Source: an uncultured Gammaproteobacteria bacterium (GTDB lineage: Bacteria; Patescibacteriota; Patescibacteriia; UBA9934; CAZDDW01). From it: 64,000 bases of DNA. Below are positions 5,017 to 63,871 of this stretch, piece after piece. Under the pieces are notes generated by a model. It made no database searches, was not told where the DNA came from, and saw only the letters and a list, made by a program, of their open reading frames with translations. Made by a program: the position numbers and the translations under genes. Where the stretch lies: contig OZ246408.1 of NCBI GenBank assembly GCA_965231015.1, forward strand, positions 147,755 through 211,754, in the 5' to 3' direction. Position 1 is the first letter of the stretch. Each line of letters starts with the position of its first letter.

Positions 5017-5048
5017 GAGAATTAAGTACTCGAGAACAGATTTGGTTT

Positions 5049-6062: not shown

Positions 6063-6149
6063 GCCTTGAGATTAAGAAATTTGATTTACGAAAGGTTTAC
6101 GATGAAATGATTGCCTCGGTTAAGGCAGAAACGGAAGAAGGAGAAGTGG

Positions 6150-6968: not shown

Positions 6969-6981
6969 ATGGAGGGAGAAG

Positions 6982-7005
6982 GTAAAAGGTAAAGGGTAAA
7001 AGGGG
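6982..7005. repeat. purine-rich tract ggtaaaaggtaaagggtaaaagg; complementary to the pyrimidine-rich tract at 7376-7401 across the Avd-like gene
   Basis: Direct reading of the sequence. A related pair occurs at 9173-9188 and 9207-9234. Confidence 0.7.
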
Positions 7006-7086
7006 CTAAGTTTGCTGGGATTTTCTTAGGGCGGCAAGGGAAATCCAGAGTTGTTCGGTTAAAGCTCGAGTTTCGTTCCAGGAAGT

Positions 7087-7362
7087 TTAAGTGATGTATC
7101 CCTGATTAAGGGCGATTTTTAAGCAGGCGTCGGTTTCTGTTAGTGAGCCAAGAGCAATATTGAGAAAGCGTACGAATTCGGGTTTGGTGTTTCTGGAGCT
7201 CTCTTCAGCTAAATTAAGGTAAATTGAGATTGAAGCCCGGCGAATTTGGCTCGTTAGACCGAATTTTTCCTCGTCCGGAAAGCCTTTACTTAGGGAATAC
7301 ACTTGATTGACATAGTCTAAAATGACCTGGTTAACCCTTAGTTGTTCATATCGAAATTCCAT
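7087..7362 (-). CDS. four-helix-bundle protein of the Avd / 23S-rRNA-intervening-sequence protein family
   Basis: 91 aa. Sequence EFRYEQLRVNQVILDYV...FGLTSQIRRASISIYLNLAEE...FVRFLNIALGSLTETDACLKIALNQGY matches the four-helix-bundle family (TIGR02436/PF05635). No rRNA is present in the window. Confidence 0.7.
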   Translation of the reverse strand: MEFRYEQLRVNQVILDYVNQVYSLSKGFPDEEKFGLTSQIRRASISIYLNLAEESSRNTKPEFVRFLNIALGSLTETDACLKIALNQGYIT

Positions 7363-7375
7363 ATTTTGATTTCTT

Positions 7376-7401
7376 TTACCTCTTTCCTTTTTCCCTTTAC
7401 C
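7376..7401. repeat. pyrimidine-rich tract ttacctctttcctttttccctttacc; partner of 6982-7005
   Basis: In the minus-strand mRNA it becomes a purine-rich 5'UTR that can pair with the pyrimidine-rich 3'UTR, enclosing the ORF in a long stem. Confidence 0.6.
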
Positions 7402-7499
7402 ATCATAATATCATGAAAACGTCACTTAGTCAATGACAGGAGCTGTGGATAAGTCTGGGCTAAAATAAGCCAATTTTGAGGAATAGTGCCACTGACCCC

Positions 7500-7528
7500 T
7501 TGACAAGTTTTGTGTTTTGTGCTATACT
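7500..7528 (+). promoter_or_regulatory. sigma70-type promoter TTGACA-N17-TGcTATACT
   Basis: ccccTTGACAagttttgtgttttgtgcTATACTgg with an extended -10. It is divergent from the Avd-like gene. Confidence 0.7.
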
Positions 7529-7534
7529 GGTGTT

Positions 7535-7725
7535 AACAAGATGAGAAAAGGAAACGAAGAGCCTGGACTCATCAAGTACCTTCAAGAACAATATAGAGCG
7601 AGAGAGCCCGAGCCTGGGGTTATAAGGCATAAGTGAATGGATACATTTATAGATTGATAGATGTATACATTGACTAGACGGATTTAATTATCTCTTGCCG
7701 AGTTAGTTAGATCCGTCTTTTTTAT
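7535..7725 (+). ncRNA. small RNA module copy 1 (promoter-to-terminator, ~190 nt), unclassified
   Basis: It ends in a rho-independent terminator: gacggatttaattatctcttgccgagttagttagatccgtc followed by tttttt. It shares the motifs agagagccc(g/t)..ggg and tgtatacattga with copy 2. No conserved ORF. Confidence 0.55.
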
Positions 7726-8468
7726 AAGACAACAGTTCATTACTAGCATTTACGAATATCCGCAGTGATGACCGGCCCGGTCGGGCACGACAACCGACAG
7801 CGAGGCCATACGGAGGAGCGAGAGAGATCACCACGAATATGCGTAAGTGCATCTTACAAACCCAACTTCATGGGTTCTAACGAGTGCGCTACGCCTGGGA
7901 TCCCCAATCGGGTCGAGCCCAAGCGGAGCAGTCCTTAGAACCAGAGAGGATCAAGCGAGAGACAGAAAAACCTCTATTCGCGGGAAGTACCTTACAATTG
8001 AATACCAAATCGAAGAAGCAGGATGTAGATAAACGAACGAGAGAGATCTCTTGTCTAGGTTCTGCTTCCAGAGATCATGGATTCTAAAGTTATCCAAAAG
8101 GAAACTGTGGAGCATGACTCAATACATAACAGTGAAGTCGGGTCAGGGATTAATTACCAATCGTGATCTTATTATATAGATCGGCCTAGCGATCCGACTT
8201 CAATACTTTTTATGAATACAATTCTATTATCAACTTACATTCCTTTCATGATGGTCGTGGGAACGGTCAGTGTGGTTGGAGCGTGAGTCTTCCATAGCTC
8301 GCAAGGGAGAGAGCTTGCGAGTCTTGGAAGCCTCTGAATCAGATCCGTTATGACGGATCTGATTCAGGGAGAACGCTGCGAGGAAATGATTCTTCGCAGT
8401 GGATTAAAACGGTGCCCGTATGGGCGTTGGTGGCGTAATGCTACAACGGCCTTGAGGGGCTGCCGCAA

Positions 8469-8492
8469 AGCGTAGGGGCGAACGGCTGTTCG
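8469..8492. repeat. near-perfect 24-bp palindrome gtaggggcgaacggctgttcgccc (second copy of the 3063-3086 element)
   Basis: It differs by one base from the copy inside ORF 2904..3761. It sits about 10 bp upstream of the SD of the first GC-rich ORF. Confidence 0.8.
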
Positions 8493-8503
8493 CCCTGGAG
8501 GAG

Positions 8504-9040
8504 ATGACGATGACGACGACCACGACGAAGACAACGAAGACGACGAAGACGACGACGACGGCGCTGCCGCCGATTTCTCGACCGGCGGAGCGGCTGGAGG
8601 CCCTGCGGGGTCGTCTGATCTCGACACCCCGTGGTCCGTCCACGGGGATCGACCTCGGCCATGGCCGTCAGGTCCTGACGGAGGTCGTGTCCGTCCGACA
8701 AACGGACGGAGAGCTGGTCACCGGCCGTGATGCCCGTCACGGCCGGACCGTGCCGCTCGCGCGGCACATCGAATTCCTCCGTCGCAAGATCGCGGCGGAG
8801 AAGAAGCAGGCGGCAGCAGGCCGCCGCGGCCAGCAGGTCACTCGCCGCCGGCCGGGCAAGACCGCCCGTCGGCGGGAAGCGGCCGCCGCGGCCCGTCGCG
8901 AGGCAGAGGCCAAGGCAGAGGCCAAGGCCGCCGCGGCCCGTCGCGAGGCCGCGGAGCAGGCGGCCCGCGAGGCGGGCTGGAACTCGGCCGCGGAGCAGGC
9001 CGAGTGGGAGGTCCTCCTCACAGAAGAGCAGGCCGCCTAG
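8504..9040 (+). CDS. hypothetical protein, GC-rich island ORF 1
   Basis: Strong SD ggaggag before ATG. N-terminal Thr/Lys triplet repeat (MTMTTTTTKTTKTTKTT), Arg/Ala-rich coiled-coil-like C-terminus. GC ~68%. Confidence 0.5.
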   Translation: MTMTTTTTKTTKTTKTTTTALPPISRPAERLEALRGRLISTPRGPSTGIDLGHGRQVLTEVVSVRQTDGELVTGRDARHGRTVPLARHIEFLRRKIAAEKKQAAAGRRGQQVTRRRPGKTARRREAAAAARREAEAKAEAKAAAARREAAEQAAREAGWNSAAEQAEWEVLLTEEQAA

Positions 9041-9352: not shown

Positions 9353-10372
9353 ATGTTCCAAATGACTATCAACGTTGCGGTCATGTTCTCGAAGTTCTTC
9401 AGCCCCGCCGACCGCGAGGCGGTGCTGGAGGCCATCCCGGCCGACGCCAAGAAGGTGCTGTTCGTGGACACGGGCGCCACGCCCGTGCTGGCGGACACGA
9501 TCCGCGTGCTCTTCGAGCGCGGGATCGAGGTGGTCGTCCGAGACCACCACCGTGGCGAGGGCAGGACGCCCGAGGCCGCGGAGGCGATCGAGAAGATCCT
9601 GGGCGACAACGCCCGGATCGTCTCGCGCGATGAGGCACCGGCGTGTGCCTCTCTCGTCGAGATCGCCGAGTTCGCCGAGGTCGGGACGGTCATCGTGGCC
9701 GATCCGGACCCGGACGGCCTGACCGCGGCCATGAAGGCGGCCGGCGTGACCTACGACGGCCTGGACCGCGACGCCGCGGTGCTCGACGGGCCGCGGTCCG
9801 AGCAGACCGCTGACCGGCTCTCGGATCTGGCGGTCCTGTTGACGAAGGGGATGGCGACCTTGCCCCCCTTCAACCCCAAGCGGCCGGAGGGGGGCGAGAA
9901 GGCGAAGAGCGAACACTTCGGAGAGTTTGTTGCCGCCACCCAGGGCGACGAGCAGGCCGTCGAGGCCTTGACCAAGAAGGTCGAGGTCTACGAGGTGCAG
10001 GTCTCGGAGGCCGAGCGCCTGGCCACCCGCGCCGAACAGATCCTGCCCGGCGTCTGGCTGGTCGACTGCCGCACCGGCGGCAGGTTCGACCTGGCCACGC
10101 TGGCCAAGGAGATCGAGTCCCGCCCCGGCTGCATCTGCACGGTGCAGATCAAGGGTATGGGTCCGATCGCAGCGGCCTGCGGGGGGATCCAGTACTCCTT
10201 GGCGGTGGTGAAGAGCCATCAGGCCGAGCTGGATCTCCGGAGCCTGGTCCCGGACGGCGCCGAGTCGAGCCCGGCAGCCGGACTCATCTCGAACACCTCC
10301 TTCCTCCTGCATGTGAGCCAGGAGAGGTGGATCCAGGAGATCGAGCCGGCGCTGCGCGCCCGGCTCGGCTAG
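9353..10372 (+). CDS. hypothetical protein, GC-rich island ORF 2
   Basis: SD aggagaaaag before ATG. 339 aa, GC ~67%. Contains DHH, DPDPD and EHFGEF segments. No confident family. Confidence 0.5.
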   Translation: MFQMTINVAVMFSKFFSPADREAVLEAIPADAKKVLFVDTGATPVLADTIRVLFERGIEVVVRDHHRGEGRTPEAAEAIEKILGDNARIVSRDEAPACASLVEIAEFAEVGTVIVADPDPDGLTAAMKAAGVTYDGLDRDAAVLDGPRSEQTADRLSDLAVLLTKGMATLPPFNPKRPEGGEKAKSEHFGEFVAATQGDEQAVEALTKKVEVYEVQVSEAERLATRAEQILPGVWLVDCRTGGRFDLATLAKEIESRPGCICTVQIKGMGPIAAACGGIQYSLAVVKSHQAELDLRSLVPDGAESSPAAGLISNTSFLLHVSQERWIQEIEPALRARLG

Positions 10373-14421: not shown

Positions 14422-14579
14422 CCCGCCTTAACTCGCCCAACGTTCTTGAGGAGGATGAACGTTGGGCAAATCCACAAGTTCAGCAAATCAAATATCTGGC
14501 GGATGAGCCCTGAGCTCTCTCGCCAGGAGGAATTTGTCATTTGTTTGGCTCTGCTGGACTTGTGGATTTGAGCTTAATT

Positions 14580-14632
14580 TAGCCTAAATATCTTTGTCAG
14601 GTCTTGACAAACTTAAAAAAATATGGTATAGT
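14580..14632 (+). promoter_or_regulatory. promoter of the tagcctaaa...TCTTGACAAA-N17-TGgTATAGT family
   Basis: tagcctaaatatctttgtcaggtcTTGACAaacttaaaaaaatatggTATAGT. The upstream half matches the repeats flanking the DGR at 45365 and 48405. Confidence 0.7.
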
Positions 14633-14638
14633 GTGAGC

Positions 14639-14801
14639 GTTACAATCAAAGAGTTGAGAGAGCCCTGGTCCAGGGAAAAGGACAAATGCAAGAAACGGTA
14701 AATGTATACATGTATAAATTGATACATTGATACATTGATACATCTGTTCTTGCGAAACCGGATTTGGTTACCTCTCACGAGTTAATTAAATCCGGTTTTT
14801 T
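14639..14801 (+). ncRNA. small RNA module copy 2 (~160 nt), unclassified
   Basis: Terminator aaaccggattt...aaatccggtt plus ttttt. Contains gagagagccctggtccaggg and three tandem gatacatt units plus tgtatacat. Confidence 0.55.
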
Positions 14802-15770
14802 CATAAGCACAGATCTGAGGAGGAGAGCTCTGACACTAAACTTGAGGAGGGAGGTGTCGGGTGGTATTCAAGTGATTAATCCCGGTTTAACCCGTTCGAC
14901 GGGTTTTAGCTGGCACTATTCACACGCACGAATACCTGGTGGATATACCAACTGCTTGCAGTAGGTCAAGGTCCACATGCCCCTCAGTTCTGTGCTTGGG
15001 AAACCTAGCACCCTATGGCGTGGCCTTATGCTAGTAGTCTAGTAAGGTAAAATAAGTCGGGTGGAAGTCCCGGCCACGCCTGCAAAAATTCCGCCCAGTC
15101 AACAGACCGGGCGTGAAGATATATAAACAAATTTCAGAAAGGAGAAGATTGAAGTACTGAAAGGGTTGCAGGTTAACCCGCCCAAAAAACCTGATCGGGA
15201 TTTGGGACATGGTCGAGCCCGGATTCTAGACGCAAGACCAAAGGGACTATGAAGACGCCCTGCCAATCGAGCCCGTTACGTCATGGGCTGGCAAAAAGTA
15301 TCTTCGTCAAATTTTACAACCGGTGAATCAGGAGGAAGAAATCCGCTAGAGGATCAATCCGTTTGGCAAATCAATCAGATGGTTGAGTTGTGCCAAGAGA
15401 GGATCGGTGAATGCAGAAGGATTGAAGGTCGCTCGGGGGCTTGTTGCTAAGCTACCCGCCCGGGCGATAGTAAAAAACAACCTCGTTAATTCGAGGGTCA
15501 GGGTAGTCGGCGGAGCATGAGGTACTTGTGCTGGAACGTTAGGAACGCCTAAGGATAAAACCGGTGGCTAGTACGAAGCAAACCCAGCATAAAGGCCGTG
15601 CCGAAATTCCGGTACCCGTCGTCAGGTTCGCACCCAAACATGTCGGGCGTCACCTGCCCGTTAAATCCGTCTAGCCAACGGAAGTGGTGAGCCAAGGGGA
15701 AGCAGATCCCCCAGTGAGATTACTTTGGCCCGTGCAACACAAGCACTAACGTGTTGCACGGGCCTTTTCC
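14802..15770 (+). ncRNA. ORF-free ~0.95 kb region with extensive hairpins ending in a terminator-like perfect 12-bp stem (15729-15762) plus ccttttcc; candidate large structured RNA, family not identified
   Basis: No ORF of 60 aa or more on either strand between 14965 and 15890, in an otherwise tightly packed genome. The terminal stem is cccgtgcaacac/gtgttgcacggg. Confidence 0.3.
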
Positions 15771-40035: not shown

Positions 40036-40770
40036 ATGCGAGGTGAAATTGGGGGAAAATCCACAAGACATATCGGTTGGACCGTGTTAGCGGTGGTGCT
40101 TTTGATAATTTTAGCTCTTTTTGCCCTTCGGGTAATTATTATTTACGACAAGATTAGTAGAGGTGATTACCATGATTTAGCTATTGATTTTAGTGGATAT
40201 GTGAGCACAGGGCAGGGTTTGGTAGAAAGTAGTGATGACGAGGTGTATGATGTGGCGACAGAAGATGACCCGAGTTTTGGTCCTGATGGTGCGCCCTTAA
40301 CCATTGTGCAGTTTGCTGACTTTGATTGTCCGTATTGTGCAGATACCGCCTACACTGTTCGCCGCTTGCAAGGTCGGTATCCGGATCAAATTAAGTTTAT
40401 CTTTCGCGATTTTCCGATTACAGAAAATCATCCCGATGCTCAGTTAGCCGCCGAGGCAGCTGAGTGTGCCAACGAACAAGGAAAGTTTTGGGAGTTCCAT
40501 GATAAATTGTATCAGAACCAGTCAGATCAAAGCCGTGAGGTGTTAAAAAGATTCGCTGTTGAACTTAACATGGATTACAATGAATTTGTTGGTTGTTTAA
40601 ATAGTGGCCGTTATCGAAGTGAGGTTCAGGAAGATTACGCTGATGGAGTTATGGCCGGAGTTTATGGTACACCAACGTTCTTTTTTAACGGTCATCGAGT
40701 TCAGGGAGCAATTCCTGACGACGTTTTTTCACTCATCGTCGATGCTTTTTTAACGGGTACTGCCGAGTAG
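40036..40770 (+). CDS. DsbA-family thiol:disulfide oxidoreductase (membrane-anchored)
   Basis: TM anchor then the thioredoxin fold, with the CPYC active site in QFADFDCPYCA. Start set at ATG 40036; the track start 39883 is an upstream extension. Confidence 0.75.
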   Translation: MRGEIGGKSTRHIGWTVLAVVLLIILALFALRVIIIYDKISRGDYHDLAIDFSGYVSTGQGLVESSDDEVYDVATEDDPSFGPDGAPLTIVQFADFDCPYCADTAYTVRRLQGRYPDQIKFIFRDFPITENHPDAQLAAEAAECANEQGKFWEFHDKLYQNQSDQSREVLKRFAVELNMDYNEFVGCLNSGRYRSEVQEDYADGVMAGVYGTPTFFFNGHRVQGAIPDDVFSLIVDAFLTGTAE

Positions 40771-40771
40771 T

Positions 40772-42283
40772 ATGAAAAGAATGAAAAAAATAGGATCAAT
40801 TTTTGTAGCGTTGTATGCGTTTGCTTTTATTTTTGCTTTGCCTGCGACTGTTTTAGCAGCCGAGAATTGTGTTTGTTGGTGTGGGTTAGAAGGAGCCGGA
40901 GCCGTGGTAGCTGAAGGACCGACTACAATAGAAGGCTGTCGAGCCGGTTGCGATACAGCTAATATGGAATTTCTGACTTGTGCTGAAGAAGGCGATTATG
41001 ATCCGACCAATAATCTAATCTGCTGGTCAGAAACAGAATGTGCTACTGCTGAAGGTATTTGGGGAGACGATATTCCAAAAGATTGTACGGACAACACTCG
41101 TTATTGTTACAACCAAGCCGAGCCGGTTAAGCTCGGTGTGGCAGTCGGTGGAATCAGTACCGTTAATGATATCGGAGAGTACGTCAACGCCTTTTATAAA
41201 TGGACTTTGTCAGCCGGAGTAATTGTGGCCACAGTTATAATCATGGTTGGTGGCGTGCAGTACATGGTGGGTAAAGGTTCAGGAAATGTCCAAAAGGCTA
41301 AGGATCGAATTCGTCATGCGGTAATTGGATTTGTTTTGTTGCTCGGAGCGTACATTATTTTGGCCACGGTTAATCCACAATTAGTTAGTTTAGAAATTCC
41401 AACCTTCCCGAAAGTTAAAACCGTTCATTATCTTGGTGACGAAGACAACTGCGATAAATTAATCGGTCATGGCTATAAAGTTGAATTGGAAAATGGAACC
41501 GAAGTGAGTACAACCGACGCGACCATTATGGCTCTCTTGCGATCTGGTCAAACTCTGGGTGCACTCGGGAAGTCCAGTTTGAGTTGCGGGACAGAAGCCA
41601 CAGTGACAGCTGGTCCGGGGGACTCTGAAGTTGAAGAAGATAAAACCTGTTTCTTCACCTATTGTCCAACCGGTGAAGGTTGTATTCCTCCGTCAGCTGG
41701 AGAACCACCAGAGTGTATTGGGTGTACTGATATCGTCGGTTTTCAAGCAGGAAAGCCACAGCCAAGCGAAAGTACTTGCAGTATGATTACCTATCCCAAC
41801 TCCGGCAATACTAAACGTTACTGTGTATATTCTCAAACCGGACTCTTGTCACCTTTGCAGGCTGACGACATTAAAGCTCATGGTGGTTGTGGTGAGTTGA
41901 CAGTTGATTGTAGTAGCATTTCTTCCTGCCGAGATTATGATGAAGCCACTGTTAGTATCACGGCAACTAAAGTCGTTGAGTGCGTTTCAGGGGCTGGTAT
42001 TGCCGCTTTTAATCCATCAATTTTTTCCAACCTCTGTAATAGTGATCCCTGTAACGTTGCCCCGGACGGTCAAAGTTGTGGTCCGAAATTTACGTACCTG
42101 AATGATGTTTCTGAAGCCTTTCAATTAGGACCACTACCAGCCAGTTTTTATCCGGGGTTACCGAATGTCCAATGGGATTGTGTAAATACTAATTACAAAG
42201 AAACTGGTTGTTTGGATAAAGATAATAAGGACATCACTTGTTGGGATGTTGAGGGAACTACTGGAGCTTGTTTGAGGTTTTAA
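40772..42283 (+). CDS. Cys-rich secreted protein with central pilin-like pair of TM helices
   Basis: Signal peptide, about 35 Cys residues, and an internal segment WTLSAGVIVATVIIMVGGVQYMVGKG...HAVIGFVLLLGAYIILATV that resembles the VirB2/TrbC two-helix topology. Confidence 0.45.
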   Translation: MKRMKKIGSIFVALYAFAFIFALPATVLAAENCVCWCGLEGAGAVVAEGPTTIEGCRAGCDTANMEFLTCAEEGDYDPTNNLICWSETECATAEGIWGDDIPKDCTDNTRYCYNQAEPVKLGVAVGGISTVNDIGEYVNAFYKWTLSAGVIVATVIIMVGGVQYMVGKGSGNVQKAKDRIRHAVIGFVLLLGAYIILATVNPQLVSLEIPTFPKVKTVHYLGDEDNCDKLIGHGYKVELENGTEVSTTDATIMALLRSGQTLGALGKSSLSCGTEATVTAGPGDSEVEEDKTCFFTYCPTGEGCIPPSAGEPPECIGCTDIVGFQAGKPQPSESTCSMITYPNSGNTKRYCVYSQTGLLSPLQADDIKAHGGCGELTVDCSSISSCRDYDEATVSITATKVVECVSGAGIAAFNPSIFSNLCNSDPCNVAPDGQSCGPKFTYLNDVSEAFQLGPLPASFYPGLPNVQWDCVNTNYKETGCLDKDNKDITCWDVEGTTGACLRF

Positions 42284-42450
42284 CAATTGAAACAATCGGT
42301 TCAGAATGGGCCGGTTTTCCCCGCCAACGGTTCTACGTGGCGGAGTCCCGCCACGATTTGCGATGGCGGGATTTGTTTTGTTTACCCTTGTCTCTTGTCA
42401 GATAAAAAAATATGTGTTATCATCTCGAGCACTTGTAATAAAACCAAATT

Positions 42451-45312
42451 ATGAAAGATGCTATCAAAATTAGAGGCGCTCGAGTTCATAACCTTAAGAA
42501 CATCAACGTTGATATTCCGAAGAATAAATTAGTGGTTGTGACCGGACTCTCTGGTTCTGGTAAATCGTCTTTAGCCTTTGATACTGTCTATGCTGAAGGA
42601 CAGCGACGCTACATGGAGTCGCTTAGTTCTTATGCTAGGCAGTTTTTAGAAATGCAAGATAAACCAGATGTCGATGAAATTATTGGTTTGTCACCGACTA
42701 TTGCTATTGATCAAAAATCTTCTTCACACAACCCTCGCTCTACAGTAGGAACTGTCACTGAGATTTATGATTACCTGCGAGTGTTGTTTGCCAGAGCCGG
42801 TCGGCCACATTGTCCAGAGTGTAACGAGCCTGTATGCGAACAAACTCGAGATAAGATTGCTGCCGAATTAATCACCATGGTTTCAGAAAGCGAAGTTGGT
42901 TTATTTGCACCAGTGGTTGATTCGCAAAAAGGTGAACACAAACAAGTTTTACTCGCTGCGGAAAAGGCTGGTTTCAAAGAAATTCGTTATGATGGTTTAC
43001 AAATGGATTTGGATGAGTCTATTCGTATGCGTAAGGATAAAAACAAGGCTCACTCGATCGATATTTTGATTCACACGTTTATTAAAGACGAGGAAATTTC
43101 CCGGGAGCGCATGAACGATATTTTGAAAAAAGCCCTCGACTATGGCAACGGTCTGATTTTGGCAGTGCATGAATCAGATGGCGAAGAAATTATTTTTTCT
43201 GAATCGTTTGCGTGTCCTAATTGTCACATTAATCTTCCACGTCCTGAACCACGAATGTTTAGTTTCAACTCGCCGCTAGGTGCTTGTCCTGAATGTACTG
43301 GTCTGGGAGTGAAGTTGGTGTTAGAGCCAGATTTGGTAATTCCCAACAAGCGTCTGACTTTTGCTGAAGGAGCCGTGAAGCCTTGGACTCGGATTGCTGG
43401 AAACCAAACTAGTTATTTGCGAATGCTTGAACTAGTGGCCAAGAAACACAAGTTTTCTGTCAATCAATCAATTAGTAAAATTTCTAAAACTAAAATAGAT
43501 CTAGCTCTTTACGGAACTGGTGATGATATCTATAAGTTTGACGGAGCTGAAGTAACGTACCCGGGAATTATTCCGCAGCTAGAAGAAAAGTATAAATCAA
43601 CTGATTCTGATTATGTACGTAGCGAATTAGAGACTTACATGCGGACCATGGTTTGTCCTGATTGTAAAGGTAAACGTTTAAGGAAGGAAGTTTTACATGT
43701 ATTAATTGGAAACAAGTCGATTGCTGACGTGGTCAACATGTCGATTGAAGACATGTCTGGTTTCTTTGATGATATTTCTAGGAAAGAATCTAAAGGCAAA
43801 AAAGCAAAAGATAAAAAAGTTGCCGCCGACATGTCAGAGGCCGAAACCAAGGTAATCAATCGGGTAAAAAAGGAAGTAACTGAACGACTGCATAATTTGC
43901 TTGATGTGGGATTAGGTTATCTAACTCTAGACCGGTCAGCCATGACTCTGTCTGGTGGTGAAGCTCAGCGTGTTAGACTTTCAACTCAATTAAGTTCGTC
44001 ACTTTCTGGAGTAATCTATATTTTAGATGAGCCATCTATTGGTCTGCATCCCAGAGATAATGACAAACTGATCAAAACCATTGAAACTTTACGCGATCAA
44101 AACAACAGTGTGATTGTTGTCGAACATGATGAGGCCATGATGGCGGCAGCTGATCATGTGATTGATGTTGGTCCAGGGGCTGGTGAGTATGGCGGAGAGA
44201 TTATTGCCGAGGGAACTGCAGCAGCTTTGAAGAAAAACAAAGAGTCATTAACGGGACAGTACTTAAGTGGAAAGAAAAAGATAGAAACTCCCAAGAAGTT
44301 TCGAAAAGGATCTGGCAAGAAATTGACTATCGAAGGAGCTAAAGCCAACAACTTACAGGATATTAACGTTGAAATCCCGCTTGGTAAATTTGTTTGTGTC
44401 ACCGGAGTGTCTGGATCGGGAAAGTCAACTTTGATCTTAGATATTTTGGGCCGAGCTTTGTCTAAACATTTCTACCGAGCGAAGGCTTATCCGGCCGACC
44501 ATGAAGATATTAAGGGTATTAATAATATCGATAAAGTTGTGGCTGTTGATCAGTCGCCAATCGGACGCACACCTCGCTCTAATCCAGCAACTTACACAGG
44601 AGTGTTTACGGCTATTCGTGATTTGTACGCAGCTCAACCGGAAGCCAAGATGCGTGGTTTTGACGCTGGAAAATTCAGTTTTAATGTTAAAGGTGGTGGT
44701 CGATGTGAAGGTTGTGGTGGTGATGGAGTAAAAAGAATTGAAATGCAGTTTATGGGTGATGTGTACGTTGAATGTTCTGAGTGTCACGGTAAACGGTATA
44801 ATCACGAGGCCCTCGAGATATATTACAAGAGTAAAAATATTGCTGACGTGCTTGATATGACGGTGGAGGAAGCTCGCCGGTTCTTTGCCAGTGAACAATT
44901 GATTTTTGATAAGTTGAACGTGTTGCACGAAGTTGGACTCGGTTACATCAAGCTTGGGCAATCAGCCACCACACTTTCTGGTGGTGAGGCACAACGTGTG
45001 AAGCTTGCCACTGAACTTGGACGACGGGCTACGGGAAGCACTTTGTATATTTTGGATGAGCCAACAACCGGACTTCACTTTGAGGATATCAAACGTTTAC
45101 TCGAGGTACTGCATCAACTGGTCGATAAAGGAAATACCGTTTTGATTATTGAACACAACCTGGACGTGATTAAACAAGCGGACTGGTTGATTGATATGGG
45201 GCCGGAAGGTGGAAACAAAGGCGGTCTTATTATTGCCGAGGGAACACCAAAAGAGCTCTCGAAAAATGGCAAAGTCAGCTATACGGCCAAGTATTTGAAA
45301 GAGGTGCTTTAG
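42451..45312 (+). CDS. uvrA: excinuclease ABC subunit A
   Basis: Two ABC ATPase modules ([12 protein letters not shown] and [11 protein letters not shown] Walker A) and Zn-finger Cys clusters. 953 aa. Confidence 0.95.
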
Positions 45313-45331
45313 ATTGATACATATTTTGTTA

Positions 45332-45362
45332 AACCAGCGTTTTATTAACGCTGGTTTTTTTT
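45332..45362 (+). terminator. rho-independent terminator of uvrA
   Basis: aaaccagcgttttattaacgctgg followed by tttttttt. Confidence 0.8.
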
Positions 45363-45364
45363 AC

Positions 45365-45413
45365 GCCTAAAATTAGGTCAAATCTTGACAAAGACACAAA
45401 ATGGTGCTATATT
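45365..45413 (+). promoter_or_regulatory. promoter-bearing repeat A (gcctaaaattaggtcaaatcTTGACAaag-N-TGcTATATT), left boundary of the DGR cassette
   Basis: A near-identical ~40-bp copy lies at 48405-48445, immediately after the RT stop. Confidence 0.75.
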
Positions 45414-45558
45414 TTGACCTTGATCATTCAAATTTCAAGGTTAAAATTTATATGAGATAAGTATTTTGTCTGGCTCGTTTGAGCTATGTAGAATACTTGT
45501 CTCATGTTAGAGACCGGTCGTTTATCCGAACGAGTCGGATGGTTGGCCAAAAAAGGAG

Positions 45559-46470
45559 ATGATGATGACGACGGAAACGTTGATCACGTCACGGGATCCC
45601 AAGGGCAGACAGTGCTTCAGTGTGCTCGAGGCCGTCTATGACAAGGCGGAGCTCAACCCCGAGGAAGCACAGCACATCAACGAACAGGGCTATGAACTCA
45701 AGCGCGAGTTTCAGAAACTGATCGCCCGTTTGCGTGTCCGTCAGGATTACGCCAACGAGCAGGTGATCTCGAGCTACACCTACCCGAACGAGTACGCGGG
45801 CCCGCAGCCTATCGCCGAGCAGGTGGACATTCTGGCCGAGTTGTTCGGCCTGTCGCTCGGAGCAACGGTTGAGTACATTGAGAAGGTGCTACCCTCGCTC
45901 GAGCTTCCCAAGGGAGCCGAGGGGTGGTTCGCCATCCCGAGTGTCGGCGCTCTCGCTGCCCGTCACTTCCCCAAGGTCACCGATCCGGCCGAGCAGTACT
46001 GCCGCGCGGTCGAGCTGGTGCTCAAGAAGATCAGTCACTCGCGGAAGTTCTACAACTACCGCCAGGGGCAGATCAATCCGAACCAGCTGCGCCAGTATGC
46101 TAGCAGTATGGCCATGATGGAGCAGACCGTCAAGAACCAGCCAGGCGACATCATGATCATCCCGGCCCAGTTCGGTCTGCGTCACCGAGGATGCAGTGTC
46201 CGTCGAGCCCGAGCTATTTTCACCAAGAACGAATTCGGCCTCGGAGCGCTCGCTGTTGGTTCAATGCTCCTCACTCATCCCAAGCGCCTTGTCCGTTGGG
46301 AACAGCTCCACGTGGACTGCACGGGTGATGAATTTGCTCCGGTTGCTGGTGGCCAGTTCGTGCACGCGCCGTTCTTCGACTGGCTCGGCGGCGGAGTCGG
46401 GTTCTACTCCGGCCGCCTCGACAACGCGCGCGTGTACTATGGTTCGGCCTCCGGGTTTCTCCCGCAGTAG
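45559..46470 (+). CDS. DGR target (variable) protein; cytoplasmic-type N-terminus, C-terminal variable region
   Basis: SD aaggag. 303 aa. GC-rich relative to its surroundings. The last ~43 codons form the VR, which matches the TR at all positions except those where the TR carries an adenine. Confidence 0.8.
   Translation: MMMTTETLITSRDPKGRQCFSVLEAVYDKAELNPEEAQHINEQGYELKREFQKLIARLRVRQDYANEQVISSYTYPNEYAGPQPIAEQVDILAELFGLSLGATVEYIEKVLPSLELPKGAEGWFAIPSVGALAARHFPKVTDPAEQYCRAVELVLKKISHSRKFYNYRQGQINPNQLRQYASSMAMMEQTVKNQPGDIMIIPAQFGLRHRGCSVRRARAIFTKNEFGLGALAVGSMLLTHPKRLVRWEQLHVDCTGDEFAPVAGGQFVHAPFFDWLGGGVGFYSGRLDNARVYYGSASGFLPQ
46338..46468 (+). repeat. DGR variable repeat (VR)
   Basis: 131 bp aligned to the TR at 46849-46979 without gaps. 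There are 23 mismatches, and every one sits at a TR adenine. Confidence 0.85.
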
Positions 46471-46528
46471 TTGAACCTTGTTCTTTGAGGACTTGAATCT
46501 TTTGAGCCCTTGAAGCTTTTCGTTAAAG

Positions 46529-46584
46529 CCCCGCCCGCGGCGGGGCGAACCTGTCGGCTATCCACAATACGCGTGGGTAGCCGA
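46529..46584 (+). promoter_or_regulatory. two GC-rich hairpins downstream of the VR (gccccgcc-cgcg-gcggggc; cggctatccac...gtgggtagccg); candidate target-gene terminator and/or DGR homing-associated stem-loop
   Basis: Inverted repeats read directly from the sequence, 60-115 bp past the VR. Confidence 0.45.
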
Positions 46585-46603
46585 CTGTTAATTTTGCTAT
46601 AAT
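46575..46603 (+). promoter_or_regulatory. extended -10 promoter (tgcTATAAT) upstream of the TR
   Basis: ccgactgttaattttgcTATAATg. Weak -35. Confidence 0.45.
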
Positions 46604-46848
46604 GTTCGCGAGTAAGGCTAATGAACAGTAGTTCAAGGATTACTGTCGCCAAGCTCTCTCTTCAAAGAGAACAACAGCCAGAATCTTGACGGTTACGGCT
46701 TTCAAGAGCGTGCTGTCTTGAGGGGATACTGCTTGTTTCTGTCTGGTGGAGATGTTTTGTAAACATAACAAAACTGCTCCCAAATAAAATACAGGAAAGA
46801 GAAAATGGATTTTCAATTTTCAGTGACCAGGATGGACAGAAACAATAA

Positions 46849-46979
46849 TCCGGATGCTGGTGGCCAGTTCGTGAACGCACCGAACTTCAACTGGAACGAC
46901 GGCAAAGTCAAGTTCAACACCGACAACCTCGACAACGCGAACGTGAACTATGGTTCGACCTCCGGGTTTCTCCCGAAGT
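46849..46979 (+). repeat. DGR template repeat (TR)
   Basis: Adenine-rich. The AAC codons in TR correspond to the variable codons in VR. The track ORF 46805..47041 is the TR read in the VR frame, not a gene. Confidence 0.85.
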
Positions 46980-46995
46980 CACTCCTCAATAACAA

Positions 46996-47022
46996 AAGAC
47001 GTCCTGTAACGGACGCCTTTTG
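46996..47022. terminator. bidirectional hairpin terminator between TR and avd
   Basis: aaaagacgtcctgtaacggacgccttttg. Confidence 0.6.
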
Positions 47023-47027
47023 TATTA

Positions 47028-47378
47028 TTATTCAGATTTAAGTGAGCGTATCCATCCTCCAAGCATGCGTCCGATTTCATCTACCTGTTGTTGCAAGGGA
47101 GTATATTTGTTGTTGTCGATAATTTTGATGTCCTTGGCCAGGCGAATTAAAAATCTAAGTAGGTTAAGTCGAACACTAACTTTTTCTAATGTCGGTAGTT
47201 TATTGTGTTTATACAGCTCGCTGGCTTGCAGAATACCTTCAATATTATCCAGGTTAGCATTTTCAATTCTTTGCCATAGAGTATGTTTATCCTGTTTTGG
47301 TATACTGGGGCGGAGAATATAAATGTTTCGATACAATTCGTAAGATTTTTTGAAGATGGGAATGTCAAACTCGTCCAT
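47028..47378 (-). CDS. avd: DGR accessory variability determinant (Avd)
   Basis: About 116 aa from the internal Met. C-terminal VDEIGRMLGGWIRSL matches the Avd hallmark (compare Bordetella phage Avd ..EVGRILGSWIARV). Basic four-helix-bundle pattern. Inverted relative to TR and RT. Confidence 0.7.
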   Translation of the reverse strand: MDEFDIPIFKKSYELYRNIYILRPSIPKQDKHTLWQRIENANLDNIEGILQASELYKHNKLPTLEKVSVRLNLLRFLIRLAKDIKIIDNNKYTPLQQQVDEIGRMLGGWIRSLKSE

Positions 47379-47387
47379 ATAATAAGT

Positions 47388-48405
47388 GTGAAGATTGATA
47401 AGAATATTTTTGATTCGATTATTGATCCGGAGTCTCTTTTTCAGGCTTGGCAGAAGTTTCGGAATGGTAAAAGCAAACGTAAGGACGTAACTCAATTTGA
47501 GTGGAATTTGGAGAGTAATATTTTCAAGCTACATCGTGATTTAGTCAATGGAATTTATCGACACGGGTCATACACTGATTTTTACATCACTGATCCAAAA
47601 TTGCGCCATATTCACAAGGCTACGGTGCGGGACAGGATTGTACATCACGCCGTGTATCAAGTTGTAAATACAATCTTTGAGCGATCATTTATTTTCGACA
47701 GTTACTCCTGTCGGATTGGCAAGGGTACACATGCGGCAGTGAATCGACTCGAGAAGTTCGTTCGTAAGGTGAGCAAAAATTACACTGGTCCATGTTGGGC
47801 GCTTCAGTTTGATGTGAAAAAATTTTTTGATTCCGTTGATCATGACATTTTACTTAGTATTCTCAAACAAAAAATCTCCTGTCCAAAGACAAACCGTCTT
47901 TTGGCGGAGATCGTGGGCAGTTACTCGAGTTCAAATTCCGTTGGGGGGGGGGACGCTACTTGGAACCATTCGCGCGAAAGGTCTCCCGATTGGGAATTTA
48001 ACCTCGCAGTTGTTCGCGAACGTGTATATGGATGCATTTGATCATTTTATTAAAGAGGGGTTAAGAGCGCAGTGTTATCTACGCTATACTGATGATGCTT
48101 TGATTATTCACGAAGATCCGAAATATTTGAGTCTGCTCGTGCCATTTATTCAGCACTGGCTTTGGCAGAACAGGTGTCTTGTTTTGCATCCTTATAAAAC
48201 ATCTATCCGAAAATATTCGCAAGGGATTGATTTTCTTGGCTATGTTAATCTGCCACATTATCGAGTGCTTAGGACAAAAACCAAGAAGCGCATGTTTAAC
48301 CGCATTGATGAAACAAATCTGTCTTCATATTTGGGGGTTTTGTCTCATGCTGATACTCACAAAATGCAAGATAACTTGTTAAATATAGTTTGGTTTGAGC
48401 TTTAG
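47388..48405 (+). CDS. DGR reverse transcriptase, interrupted by a +1 frameshift in a G10 tract (47944-47953)
   Basis: RT motifs: TVRDRIVHHAVYQVV, FDVKKFFDSVDH, KGLPIGNLTSQLFANVYMD (the DGR-specific I/LGxxxSQ signature), YLRYTDD. The two halves are the track ORFs 47283..48041 and 47827..48405. The start is uncertain (ATG 47283 or GTG 47388). Confidence 0.8.
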
Positions 48406-48453
48406 CCTAAAATTAGGTCAAATCTTGACAAAATGAGCGAATGGTGCTAAGGT
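48405..48453 (+). promoter_or_regulatory. promoter-bearing repeat B (gcctaaaattaggtcaaatcTTGACAaaa...), right boundary of the DGR cassette
   Basis: Identical to repeat A over ~30 bp, then diverges. The -10 is degenerate (TAAGGT). Begins at the RT stop codon. Confidence 0.7.
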
Positions 48454-48490
48454 CATATCTCACAAAATTAACTAAAACAAGCCTAAAAAT

Positions 48491-50182
48491 ATGTTTAAAA
48501 AACTAATTAGTCTTATTGCTGTGCTCGGAATTCTGGGTGGATTTATCCCAGTCAGTCCAGCAATTGCCGGTTCGGAGACGACCCTTGAGGCCGACCGAGT
48601 TTGGCACTATGACGGGTACCGCGTGGAGCGCCTTGATTTTGGCACCGATGAAGTCGACGAAATAATTAAAATCGACGACTACACTATCATTACCGTGCGT
48701 ACTCCTGGTTGTGATTCTGAATGCAATATCCGCGATCTTTATTTTATTGAAAACGGAAATTACACTCATGTTGAAGACGTTCCTGGGTATGTCCTTGATG
48801 AAGCCAATTATTTCGCCAATGATGAGCGTTTCGTTTGGATTGAACTTATGAATGAAGACGAGGAAAACCGTTACAACGTGGTTGAGTACTTGCCCGGGAC
48901 CAATGAAAAAGTTGTTGTTTTAGAAGATCTGTTTTTCAGTGGTGTAGAGTCAATCAAAGCGATTGCCTCCGGAGATGAGTATTATATGAACCCGGTGTAC
49001 AACTATGACAACCACCAAGGGTTCAAACAGGCTGCGGTTTACAAGTACTTTCCTGATATTGGACTGACTGAAATAATCACTAAGCACTGGGAACTTCAGA
49101 ACGAGGAAGTTTTGGATGCCCATGACGGCATGTTACTAACACAAATGAATTTTGATAGTGACTATAAACAGCTCTGGCTTTATGGAGATGGTGAATGGCC
49201 GTACGCTCTTGCCGACACCTGGACTGTGCCACATGAAGATATTGTTGGGGCACACTTCCTGTCAGATGGATCGGTTGAGTTTTTTCGCATGTATGAACGC
49301 TACATTTGGACTCCCGGTGAAGATGGTGGTGTAACCGAAGCTCAAGGAGACTATCTTAGCTGGTACCGTGATTTTGAGGATGCACTACAGATCGTAAATG
49401 GTCGTATGGCTTGGATTGATGCTGATGACAACCTGCGTGTTTCTACTGGAGATGGAATTATTGAACTTGGCAGTATTGGTTCGACCGGTATATTCCGTTT
49501 AGAGGATGATCGCATCTTCTATGACTCCGGAGAGTCCGGTCATTTATATGATTTTTCTACTGACTCCAGTGAAATTGTTGGTTTTGCTGCCACTGATTCA
49601 GCTGAAGGGGTAATGGTTGGTACCGATGTATTGAATAATATCCTGTATATTGAAGAAAGCACCGGAACCGAGTTAACCCTTGGCTATGGTTCAATTCCGT
49701 TCGTGACTGATGCTAATCACATTTATTGGGTTGGTAATGACGGCCATGCATATGAGGCTACTATTAGCCCTGGAACAATCGCTGATACGGACGATGTAAC
49801 GGCTGCCATGACTAGTTCAAGCAATACAGTGTATCTGGTTGACGGATCAGAATATTACGAGATTCCAAGCGAAGACGTATACTTTAGTTGGTTTGATAGT
49901 TTTGAGGCAGTTGAACTCGTTGATAGTTCTTGGTTCAATGCTTACGACTATGCCGGAACAGCACAATTGTCTCCAGGAACCACTGTAAAACTTGAGGGAG
50001 ATCCTAAGCTTTATATGGTTGGAGATGATGGCAAGTTGCATTGGCTTATCAGTCAGGCGGTAGCTTATTCAATCTACGGAAGTGAGTGGAATCAGAATGT
50101 GATTGAGATGAACTATGAACAGTTAGTGCCGTACGCTTACGGCGTAAATGTGACAAGTGAAGCTGATATTCTCGAGATCTAA
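48491..50182 (+). CDS. hypothetical secreted protein
   Basis: Signal peptide MFKKLISLIAVLGILGGFIPVSPAIAG. 563 aa. Confidence 0.55.
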   Translation: MFKKLISLIAVLGILGGFIPVSPAIAGSETTLEADRVWHYDGYRVERLDFGTDEVDEIIKIDDYTIITVRTPGCDSECNIRDLYFIENGNYTHVEDVPGYVLDEANYFANDERFVWIELMNEDEENRYNVVEYLPGTNEKVVVLEDLFFSGVESIKAIASGDEYYMNPVYNYDNHQGFKQAAVYKYFPDIGLTEIITKHWELQNEEVLDAHDGMLLTQMNFDSDYKQLWLYGDGEWPYALADTWTVPHEDIVGAHFLSDGSVEFFRMYERYIWTPGEDGGVTEAQGDYLSWYRDFEDALQIVNGRMAWIDADDNLRVSTGDGIIELGSIGSTGIFRLEDDRIFYDSGESGHLYDFSTDSSEIVGFAATDSAEGVMVGTDVLNNILYIEESTGTELTLGYGSIPFVTDANHIYWVGNDGHAYEATISPGTIADTDDVTAAMTSSSNTVYLVDGSEYYEIPSEDVYFSWFDSFEAVELVDSSWFNAYDYAGTAQLSPGTTVKLEGDPKLYMVGDDGKLHWLISQAVAYSIYGSEWNQNVIEMNYEQLVPYAYGVNVTSEADILEI

Positions 50183-55806: not shown

Positions 55807-55970
55807 GGTGGTCTGGTTTTCGGTTGTCCTCTCTCCCTCATCCCTCACCCGAGGTTTCGGATGACAGGCAGCCACGCATGGAATGGCGAAGAAAGTATCT
55901 TACACCGAGCTTAAAAATAGGTCAAGCCCTCTTGTCAGGCACGGTTTTTTGGGCTAAACTGTCAACACAT

Positions 55971-63066: not shown

Positions 63067-63819
63067 ATGTATTATTACGTTTACGACGATTTTGTACAGG
63101 ATAAAAAACACGAGCGGGATTTATCGAGAATCGAGAACCGGTTGGCTGATTTGGGTATTGCTGGAAAGATTGCCCGGCTGGCACTTTTTAAACACGCGGA
63201 TGAGTTGATTATTGATGAGGTGCGTCGAGGGGTGAAAACAGTTATCGCGGTTGGGGATGATAGTACAATTTATAAAGTTTTTCCGGCTGTGGCTGAAAGT
63301 GGGGCCACCCTTGGGGTAATTCCTTTTGGCAAGCAAAATAGTTTGGCTAAGATTTTCGGTGTTCCAGAGGGGGTAGAGGCTTGTGATGTGATCGCCAATC
63401 GTATTACCGAAAAGCTTGACATCGGTCTTGTAAATGGAGAGCGGTTTTTAACCGGGGTAAAGTTTACAGGTGTGAAACCAGAAATTGTTTGTGATAAATC
63501 TTTTATTGTTACCCCAACGGAACCAACTGAGGTGGAGGTAAGAAATTTGATCGCTGGAGATGATGTTGTTTTAGATGATATTGCAGACCCTAAGGACGGT
63601 AAATTAGATCTCGTAGTAATGAATAAAAATAGAGGTGGTCTCTTTCGAAGAAAGAAAACAGCACCGGCAACCATTTTACCGATTAAGCGATTTGCTTTTG
63701 ATGGGAAGCGTGACGCTGTAGCAGAAGTTGATGGGCGAAAAGTTCGTGATGCCCGTTTTAGAATTCGTTTAGATGCCAAGAAAATCAAAGTGATTGTTGG
63801 AAAGGACAGGATGTTTTAG
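63067..63819 (+). CDS. diacylglycerol-kinase-catalytic-domain lipid kinase (YegS/BmrU-like)
   Basis: VIAVGDDSTI corresponds to the GGDGT nucleotide-binding motif of the DAGK_cat fold. Confidence 0.55.
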   Translation: MYYYVYDDFVQDKKHERDLSRIENRLADLGIAGKIARLALFKHADELIIDEVRRGVKTVIAVGDDSTIYKVFPAVAESGATLGVIPFGKQNSLAKIFGVPEGVEACDVIANRITEKLDIGLVNGERFLTGVKFTGVKPEIVCDKSFIVTPTEPTEVEVRNLIAGDDVVLDDIADPKDGKLDLVVMNKNRGGLFRRKKTAPATILPIKRFAFDGKRDAVAEVDGRKVRDARFRIRLDAKKIKVIVGKDRMF

Positions 63820-63871
63820 GTCTTGGTCTTGACAGGCGGTCTTTTTTTGTTTAAAATTCGGACACAATTTT

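Follow-up and report, generated by a model that had tools for sequence, protein, structure and literature searches.

Diversity-generating retroelements (DGRs) are most common in the Patescibacteria clade. Their known routes of transfer are phages, plasmids and integrative and conjugative elements (ICEs); outside of these, how cellular DGRs move is to our knowledge largely unknown, and we know of nothing on the matter for the Patescibacteria clade. In Roux et al. (2021; PMC8144416) these elements make up DGR clade 2, nearly all of whose members are cellular and which is confined to Patescibacteria, and a set of DGRs from the Candidate Phyla Radiation (CPR) is also available (Wu et al., 2018; PMC5758913). 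In Bacteroides, DGR-carrying ICEs show direct repeats that result from integrase-mediated site-specific integration into tRNA-Lys (bioRxiv 10.1101/2024.11.15.621889). Here, we analyzed a DGR cassette in a 64,000-nt stretch of contig OZ246408.1 (hereafter the window), lying between uvrA and a gene for a 563-aa protein. Like the cellular DGRs of Patescibacteria and the CPR, it has a DGR-type reverse transcriptase (RT), a bAvd protein, a template repeat (TR) and variable repeat (VR) that differ only at adenines, and the gene order target-TR-avd(-)-RT, and it is chromosomal with no phage or plasmid context. Unlike them, it has an RT frame interrupted by a surplus G in a run of ten, and the cassette is bracketed by a 28-45-nt duplicate of its neighbor's promoter. 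As with the Bacteroides ICEs, direct repeats flank a DGR-bearing insert and mark its insertion, and related genomes lack the insert; unlike these large elements, the unit is a bare 3-kb cassette with no integrase, and its repeat is a mosaic promoter. The DGR literature that we searched contained no description of a bare cassette with a duplicated host promoter at its two ends. We consider it probable, with moderate confidence, that the whole cassette was inserted through staggered junctions that duplicated 28 nt of the resident promoter.

The bracket is a direct repeat of 45 nt and 87% identity, recovered by a repeat search of the window, with copy 1 at 45365-45409 and copy 2 at 48405-48449. 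A first-pass annotation of this DNA had described promoter-containing repeats of about 40-50 bp at 45365-45413 and 48405-48453; the repeats are real and lie where it placed them, although its ranges run 4 nt past the 45-nt repeat and take in -10 hexamers that differ (TATATT in copy 1, TAAGGT in copy 2), the copies parting ways two bases into these hexamers. The full 45 nt are not perfectly identical: 28 exact nucleotides (GCCTAAAATTAGGTCAAATCTTGACAAA, at 45365-45392 in copy 1) are followed by a 7-nt block in the -35/-10 spacer that holds all six mismatches (copy 1 reads GACACAA here and copy 2 ATGAGCG) and then by ten exact nucleotides (AATGGTGCTA) in both copies. Copy 1 may also be written GCCTAAAATTAGG...GACACAAAATGGTGCTATATT, and its spacer with the -10 as ...TTGACAAAGACACAAAATGGTGCTATATT. 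The perfect 28-nt repeats are 3,040 bp apart. Even with up to three mismatches allowed, the 28-mer occurs exactly twice in the window (0 expected from 100 shuffles), and an ungapped comparison of the 400 nt left of the target gene with the 460 nt around the end of the RT gene scored 28, against a mean of 9.0 (sd 1.1, maximum 12) in shuffles.

Had the motif been a ubiquitous promoter consensus, a caveat raised in the first-pass annotation, it should have recurred; in about 170 fetched loci, with up to six substitutions allowed, the 28-mer had no match except in L081, which comes from the same genome. Exact scans of 2.9 million viral contigs with a 25-nt repeat core and with the spacer specific to copy 1 gave no match either. 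Neither variant of the 7-nt block occurs elsewhere in the window on either strand, and a templated origin of this block from within the window is thus ruled out. L081 is an independent Logan assembly (SRR7048221) that is 100% identical to window positions 40048-46353; because this identity extends across the left junction, that junction is not an assembly artefact. The L081 assembly breaks 15 nt into the VR, and TR and VR have no exact 31-mer in common; heterogeneity of the VR in the population is a possible cause of the break.

Both copies are predicted sigma-70-type promoters with 17-nt spacing, each upstream of a gene. As first annotated, copy 1 follows the uvrA terminator and precedes the target gene: an intrinsic terminator was found by a terminator scan at 45331-45364 (+), with an 11-pair hairpin (45331-45357) and then TTTTTTT, and the repeat begins directly 3' of it. 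From copy 1 (+), the putative target-gene promoter has its upstream element and its -35 (45385-45390), with the -10 at 45408-45413; in a promoter scan it reads TTGACA-17-TATATT, matching the consensus at 11/12 positions and carrying a TG extension. Copy 2 (+) begins, again as described, at the RT stop codon TAG (48403-48405) and lies 5' of the ATG at 48491; it is the predicted promoter of the 563-aa gene, TTGACA-17-TAAGGT, with TG before the -10 (-35 at 48425-48430, -10 at 48448-48453). Both thus match extended sigma-70-type promoters (TTGACA, 17 nt, TGnTAnnnT), and their promoter function is supported by the fact that their position relative to the downstream genes is conserved. Unlike plain promoters of this type, both carry an additional 20-nt upstream element, GCCTAAAATTAGGTCAAATC, exact in the two copies, which may be an UP-like element or the site of a regulator.

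The element between the repeats is a canonical Patescibacteria DGR. The target gene (45559-46470, +) encodes 303 aa at about 60% G+C, has no Pfam match, and carries the VR at its 3' end (46338-46468, +; 131 nt, 82% identical to the TR). The TR (46849-46979, +; 131 nt) has 34 adenines, 23 of which are substituted in the VR, and all TR/VR mismatches (23/23) fall at TR adenines. Directly upstream of the RT gene lies avd (47028-47378, -; 116 aa, Pfam bAvd 1.9e-22). The RT gene (47388-48405, +) matches RVT_1 on both halves. A G10 run (47943-47952), which codes for the conserved VGGG motif, contains one G too many, and this +1 frameshift divides the gene, leaving the cassette with no intact RT reading frame; a truncated 252-aa product is recorded in both NCBI and Logan. 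With one G removed, the frame encodes an RT of 338 aa that shares 50-72% identity with DGR RTs of Patescibacteria; DGR-type RTs in this range number in the thousands, and many lie beside bAvd genes. The frameshift could mean a pseudogene, a gene dependent on slippage or subject to phase variation, or a read error shared by the two records. A second DGR-type RT (P0039), 72% identical, is encoded outside the window in the same genome, a contig of 1,002,985 nt. It could act in trans and complement the broken RT, or it could be the source of the cassette beside uvrA. Apart from its broken RT frame the DGR is ordinary; it is the locus around it that forms a tidy, well-supported and datable insertion footprint.

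The same order of target, TR, avd (-) and RT recurs in about 20 homologous metagenomic cassettes in unrelated Patescibacteria contexts, for which reason we regard the cassette as behaving as a unit. Target homologs number more than 2000, and those with a source name are from Patescibacteria; the 120 top matches listed are full length and 53-60% identical. IMG/VR has 4 target homologs versus more than 570 in metagenomes, in keeping with the cellular character described for the clade (PMC8144416); with the empty viral-contig scans, these counts leave a phage vehicle for the cassette unsupported. A split in base composition runs through the family: nearly all target homologs (L086-L165) have a G+C of 0.55-0.66, in host loci of 0.38-0.50 and next to RT genes of 0.30-0.48. 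A GC-rich target is thus joined to an AT-rich RT and avd in one cassette, across dozens of lineages.

By its uvrA relatives, with orthologs 57-91% identical, the organism is a Candidatus Uhrbacteria bacterium, and we compared the site in seven of them (L001, L002, L004, L005, L082, L083/L084, L085). On the left of the site stands uvrA (42451-45312, +; Pfam UvrA_DNA-bind 1.5e-24, UvrA_inter 2e-20), and on the right the 563-aa gene (48491-50182, +), whose product has a hydrophobic, signal-peptide-like N-terminus and no Pfam match. In all seven relatives the gene next to uvrA is orthologous to the 563-aa gene, usually with L19 coming after it on the opposite strand, and in 7/7 there are no DGR genes in between; relatives with this synteny and a DGR lacking flanking repeats, which would have spoken against an insertion footprint, were therefore not among them. 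The first-pass annotation had expected an empty site to read uvrA, one repeat copy and the gene. L085 (uvrA 82%) has just such a site, with the terminator, one promoter (TTGACAAAA...TGCTAAG) and the gene, and L002 and L004 (67%) have a short intergenic gap with one promoter and no DGR genes; L005 (64-65%) also has no DGR genes. The expectation does not extend to the two closest relatives, which hold a different, two-gene insert: L082 (uvrA 91.5%) with a 204-aa gene (+) and a GC-rich 116-aa gene (-) at 7820-8834, and L083/L084 (82%) with a 203-aa gene (+) and a 127-aa gene (-) (L083 8343-9391), plus about 600 nt. L001 (82%) carries a GC-rich non-coding insert of about 400 nt. No flanking repeats were found around these other inserts (L082, L083/L084, L001), the best scores being 7-9.

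From these comparisons, the region between uvrA and the 563-aa gene is an insertion hotspot, and the DGR a lineage-specific insertion that would have taken place after the split from the closest sampled relative. The locus thereby shows, with a date, the states before and after a bare DGR cassette reached a conserved housekeeping neighborhood, where the empty site, alternative occupants, both junctions and the way in which the cassette gained local transcription signals can be seen together.

The alternative occupants deserve mention in their own right. The modules of L082 and L083 show distant homology, with only 21-25% identity between them, and have no relation to the DGR; they belong to no Pfam family, evolve fast, and have a GC-rich minus-strand gene with its own divergent promoter. 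The L001 insert (4640-5020) comprises about 380 nt at 54% G+C with two long helices (z=-5.6), and no similar sequence was found in any fetched locus.

With the two-gene module present in both of the closest relatives, the DGR may have taken its place instead of arriving at a vacant site. The cassette could also have arrived with its surroundings from a related strain, or as a circle integrated by a Campbell-type single crossover in the promoter, the spacers of the two copies then being different alleles. Indeed, the spacer block has the look of a pair of alleles and not of scattered mutations, this recombination or insertion hotspot is in four different states among the relatives, and DGRs occur at a different site in the related L166 and L167. 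We nevertheless regard import as very doubtful. Identity to L082 is uniform at about 78-82% across uvrA up to the junction, and a foreign recombination tract in uvrA is thus ruled out. No donor was found, the closest target homolog among the matches listed being only 60% identical, and an import would leave the first origin of the repeats unexplained, since this origin would then lie elsewhere. Moreover, unlike in att-site (Campbell-type) integration, there is no recombinase, the 28-mer is absent from viral contigs and related loci, and other cassettes of the family sit in unrelated sites.

The relatives also allow us to ask which of the two copies is the older at this place. Nucleotide homology between the window and L082 ends at the uvrA stop codon and restarts at 48408, where copy 2 begins. 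Between this point and the start codon, the copy 2 promoter and 5' untranslated region (5'UTR) are identical to L082 at 73/89 positions, covering TTGACAAA, GGTGCTAAGGTCATA and the 5'UTR. The stretch TTGACAAA...TGCTAAGGTCAT, in which TGCTAAGGTCAT is the -10 region, is kept in L082 and L083 and has small changes in L085 and L004; L001 has at the same place GCCTAAAATAAG, 13 extra nucleotides, and then TCAAATCATTGACAAAA. Because homology to L082 restarts at copy 2, and because the -10 and 5'UTR of this copy line up with those of the orthologous promoters, copy 2, upstream element included, is the native, ancestral promoter of the 563-aa gene. The spacer is a less certain guide. In a gapped alignment to L082, the 7-nt block of copy 2 has 4/7 matches and that of copy 1 has 1/7, and only this alignment favors the copy 2 spacer as ancestral; ungapped comparison with L082 and L085 gives 9-10/17 for copy 2 and 10-11/17 for copy 1 and does not discriminate between them.

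The upstream element supplies the date. At the orthologous promoter it is 12/20 identical in L082, split by the 13-nt insertion in L001 and absent in L085, and between the two copies in the window it is 20/20. Since the copies are thus far closer to each other than to L082, their duplication (or homogenization) would be younger than the split between the window lineage and L082.

Copy 1 has a different ancestry. Among 55 aligned upstream regions of the target family, a strong promoter stands at a fixed distance from the start codon, mostly 143-148 nt; the distance from the copy 1 -10 to the target ATG is 146 nt, inside this mode, which places copy 1 at the canonical promoter position of the cassette. 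Promoters of the family typically read cAAATaCTTGACAnAA...GTGCTATAyT, and that of L093, which has the closest avd, reads AAATCATTGACAAAA...GTGCTATATT. The -10 of copy 1 (TATATT) thus looks cassette-derived and its spacer is probably so as well, and its upstream element and -35 are a recent partial copy of the neighbor's promoter. Copy 1 is accordingly a mosaic partial copy rather than a clean duplication, with the cassette lying upstream of the complete ancestral promoter. The first-pass annotation had proposed that target, TR, avd and RT entered as one unit between a promoter and its gene, duplicating the promoter. Entry as one unit is consistent with the lineage-specific insertion and the approximately 20 contexts in which the unit recurs, and the duplication is borne out for the 28 nt of upstream element and -35; the proposed position between promoter and gene is not, as copy 2 stands complete upstream of its gene.

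The history that we favor would have run as follows. A cassette with its own spacer and -10, leader, target with VR, TR, avd (-) and RT would have entered the region between uvrA and the 563-aa gene. At the right junction, the RT stop codon would have been joined to the start of the upstream element of the resident promoter; the left junction would have formed inside the -35 region (TCAAATCTTGACAAA), where the cassette and resident promoters were already alike because both follow the AAATnCTTGACAAA...TGCTA pattern of the lineage. With the junctions staggered in this way, the 28 nt between them would be duplicated. The resulting hybrid promoter, with a resident upstream element and -35 and the spacer and -10 of the cassette, would drive the DGR target, and the intact ancestral promoter would keep driving the 563-aa gene. 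Staggered junctions would explain why the identity is perfect over 28 nt and breaks off sharply after TTGACAAA, why the spacer and -10 of copy 2 look ancestral, and why copy 1 combines a -10 of the cassette type with the canonical spacing. Recombination between the 28-nt repeats could later lead to precise loss of the cassette.

Several observations weigh against this history. The ten nucleotides AATGGTGCTA are identical in the two copies, and a left junction in the -35 region explains only their GTGCTA part, which belongs to the extended -10 consensus; the other 4 nt need chance (~1 in 256) or patchy repair. The cassette has no recombinase, transposase or terminal inverted repeats, and about 19 homologous cassettes lack a flanking repeat. 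The module at the same site in L082 and L083 means that the cassette may have replaced it, or may have come by homologous recombination from a strain not yet sampled. Promoter activity of both copies is predicted, and the census for further copies of the repeat covered the 64-kb window and the overlapping contig L081, 6% of the 1.0-Mb genome.

The mosaic structure of copy 1 also suits a history in which the cassette arrived with its own promoter and only later captured part of its neighbor's, when gene conversion or a template switch copied the upstream element, the -35 and the AATGGTGCTA patch. The pattern of 28 identical nucleotides, 7 unconverted and 10 identical is what such an event could leave, copy 1 keeps its cassette-type -10 and the canonical 146-nt spacing, and AAATnCTTGACAAA and GTGCTA, common to native family promoters and resident promoters, would provide some seed homology. 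This homology amounts to only about 14 nt, however, which is short for conversion by recombination; the exact abutment of the RT stop codon on the repeat is left unexplained, and some 19 other cassettes lie beside foreign promoters with no such conversion. We therefore hold a later capture to be unlikely, and keep to staggered insertion in what follows.

If the bracket were general to the cassette family, it should be found around its other members. The comparison of flank against flank was extended to about 19 distinct homologous cassettes whose flanks were long enough, and most scored 7-11, no better than controls from the same locus; the promoter bracket is not a hallmark of the cassette family. 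It may not be unique to the window either. In L154 (identical to L153), an independent cassette, a weaker form of the pattern stands clear of the background: a 20-nt direct repeat with one mismatch, at 6826-6845 and 9851-9870, has a pair score of 17 (shuffle maximum 12, same-locus control maximum 13). The repeat, CTTGGAAAAGATAG[A/C]TATTT, lies at the canonical promoter position of the target (-146), and its second copy comprises the -35 and spacer of the promoter of the gene 3' of the RT. The RT reading frame of L154 ends inside the right repeat copy. In L121, a 28-nt pair is 86% identical, no better than its same-locus control.

These shorter brackets, in L154 (20 nt) and weakly in L121 (28 nt), bear on another possibility, a true target-site duplication of at least 45 nt made by a transposase- or integrase-like cut in trans, followed by one complex mutation of the block in copy 1. 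As in transposon target-site duplication or homology-facilitated illegitimate recombination, a host stretch that is single at the empty site is doubled around the insert: the direct repeats bracket the insert exactly and the relatives have one copy of the promoter. Yet the only open reading frames of the cassette are target, avd and RT, and neither Pfam searches nor the open reading frames revealed a transposase, integrase or recombinase in or next to it. No terminal inverted repeats pair the cassette ends; the inverted pairs in 44000-50000 are short (14-30 nt) and 70-88% complementary. The repeat is imperfect and, at 28-45 nt, longer than usual transposase duplications, and variable duplications of 20-45 nt are atypical of known DNA transposases. 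Six mismatches confined to 7 of 45 positions would be very unlikely under independent mutation (~3e-5), one junction coincides with promoter-consensus microhomology, unlike in target-site duplication, and most cassettes have no duplication at all. A target-site duplication of this kind is thus quite improbable.

Under staggered insertion, the likeness between the window and L154 raises a wider possibility, namely that the Patescibacteria cassette (leader, target, TR, avd and RT) is a mobile unit that inserts at resident promoters by promoter-homology-guided recombination. We consider this generalization rather doubtful. If true, each end of the cassette would carry a copy of the resident -35 region, the pattern of the window and L154; the cassette would gain a ready-made local promoter and a means of precise excision via the repeats, and DGRs could spread within and between streamlined genomes with no phage, plasmid or integrase. 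Should the pattern of promoter duplication in the window and L154 recur, it would suggest that insertion is guided by promoter homology and that DGRs are carried reversibly; taken alone, the window is a well-documented example and not a new principle.

The closest RTs (62-63%) belong to L166 and L167, where the DGR has an unrelated target and an avd 32% identical to that of the window, and lies at a different site, between a class-I tRNA synthetase gene and RNase J (5296-8020 in L166, 1-2032 in L167). This is about 5 kb left of the SBP-DsbA-pilin-uvrA block; uvrA of L167 is 79% identical. The L166 DGR has no flanking repeats, and the L167 contig is without the target end of its cassette and hence fell outside the flanking-repeat test. 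In L105, a cassette of the family (5389-7906) lies directly downstream of a uvrA-like gene (35% identical), possibly by coincidence.

A third, diverged copy of the repeat had been claimed at 14580-14612, driving the second of two small RNAs (sRNAs). The quoted sequence is present and drives sRNA copy 2, having TAGCCTAAA and TCTTGACAAA in common with the repeat at a different spacing, but the similarity is marginal: a blastn search of the window with the repeat did not match 14580 on the plus strand at E<10. The motif GGTCNNNTCTTGACAAA, with up to two mismatches, has 3 matches versus 0.69 expected, a count reached in 2/100 shuffles. When all 22 TTGACA-17-TAnnnT promoters of the window were ranked by local score against the upstream element of the repeat, copy 2, the reference, scored 26 against itself and copy 1 scored 22, followed by valS (55910) with 14, 14580 with 12 and the rest with at most 7. 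The promoters at 14580 and 7459 are paralogs, each driving one of the two sRNA copies that flank a GC-rich island.

The first-pass annotation had further taken the shared sequence to link the DGR to this island, at 7-17.5 kb. This link is not supported: besides the paralogy with 7459 and a valS promoter that resembles the repeat at least as well, the island contains no paralogs of target, RT, avd or TR (tblastn, blastn), no leader (nhmmer) and no integrase (Pfam), its only Pfam match being a 23S_rRNA_IVP gene beside it. The high G+C of the target was also considered as a link to the island and was rejected, being a family-wide property (0.55-0.66). The resemblance at 14580 is better read as an upstream element common to some promoters of the genome than as a sign of common mobile origin.

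Such a shared element could also be taken to mean that nothing was duplicated, and that the two copies are independent promoters of one regulon, held alike by selection on a regulator site (the CCTAAAATTAGG palindrome) and on a consensus -35 and extended -10. A loose motif, SYTAAAWWWARS, has 7 matches in the window versus 1.75 expected, 5/7 of them just upstream of predicted promoters including those of the sRNAs and valS, and TAGGTC lies upstream of the -35 in five promoters. This motif was defined post hoc, after the data had been seen, and the other promoters that bear it match the repeat at no more than 14 aligned positions, where the pair match at 26-28. In addition, the orthologous promoter in relatives (L082, L001, L085) preserves the upstream element poorly, and the 28-mer is absent from all related loci. 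Independent origin of the two copies is therefore scarcely credible, and a duplication made by staggered insertion remains our preferred account of them.

Of the approximately 22 canonical promoters, five have TAGGTC itself at a distance of 0-13 nt upstream of the -35, those of sRNA2 (14599-14603, with CAGGTC at 14598), the DGR target (45375-45380), the 563-aa gene (48415-48420), valS (55919-55924) and tRNA-Leu (63818-63823). It often follows GCYTAAA, and may be a lineage-specific element upstream of promoters.

Between its promoter and the target gene, the cassette has a structured leader RNA (45421-45558, +), with a long hairpin at about 45451-45506, a short hairpin and a ribosome-binding site. 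The leader, of about 140 nt, lies behind the fixed-distance promoter and is seen in L088, L093, L094, L096, L103, L121 and others, including members of the target family with no RT nearby. A family profile (nhmmer) matched it at E=2e-19 as its sole match in the window, and the window leader folds with z=-6.3. Of the 25 pairs in its helix, 20 covary, and 92.9% of cells are paired; these values were reached in 0/500 shuffles, and slid controls paired at 35-47%. Given its presence also where no RT is nearby, the leader looks like a candidate cis-regulatory RNA. No Rfam family matches the leader, the repeat or the L001 insert. On the 3' side of the long hairpin, the short second hairpin is followed by a conserved start region, GGAGGATGACGATG.

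The island has features of its own. The two sRNA-like units that flank it (7440-7735 and 14545-14815) each consist of a promoter, about 180 nt and a terminator; their 3' halves are well conserved, with a mean identity of 74% over the whole alignment, and the island between them has a G+C of 60-69%. Just left of the first sRNA copy lies the 23S_rRNA_IVP gene, which encodes a four-helix bundle (7087-7362, -; Pfam 7e-28). The start of the first gene of the island (8499-8518; GGAGGAGATGACGATGACGACG) agrees with the ribosome-binding site and start of the DGR target (45554-45573) at 19/20 nt (blastn E=0.05); GGAGGAGATGACGATGACGACG also resembles the family consensus GGAGGATGACGATG, and the match could be due to chance or to a style of translation start common to GC-rich genes.

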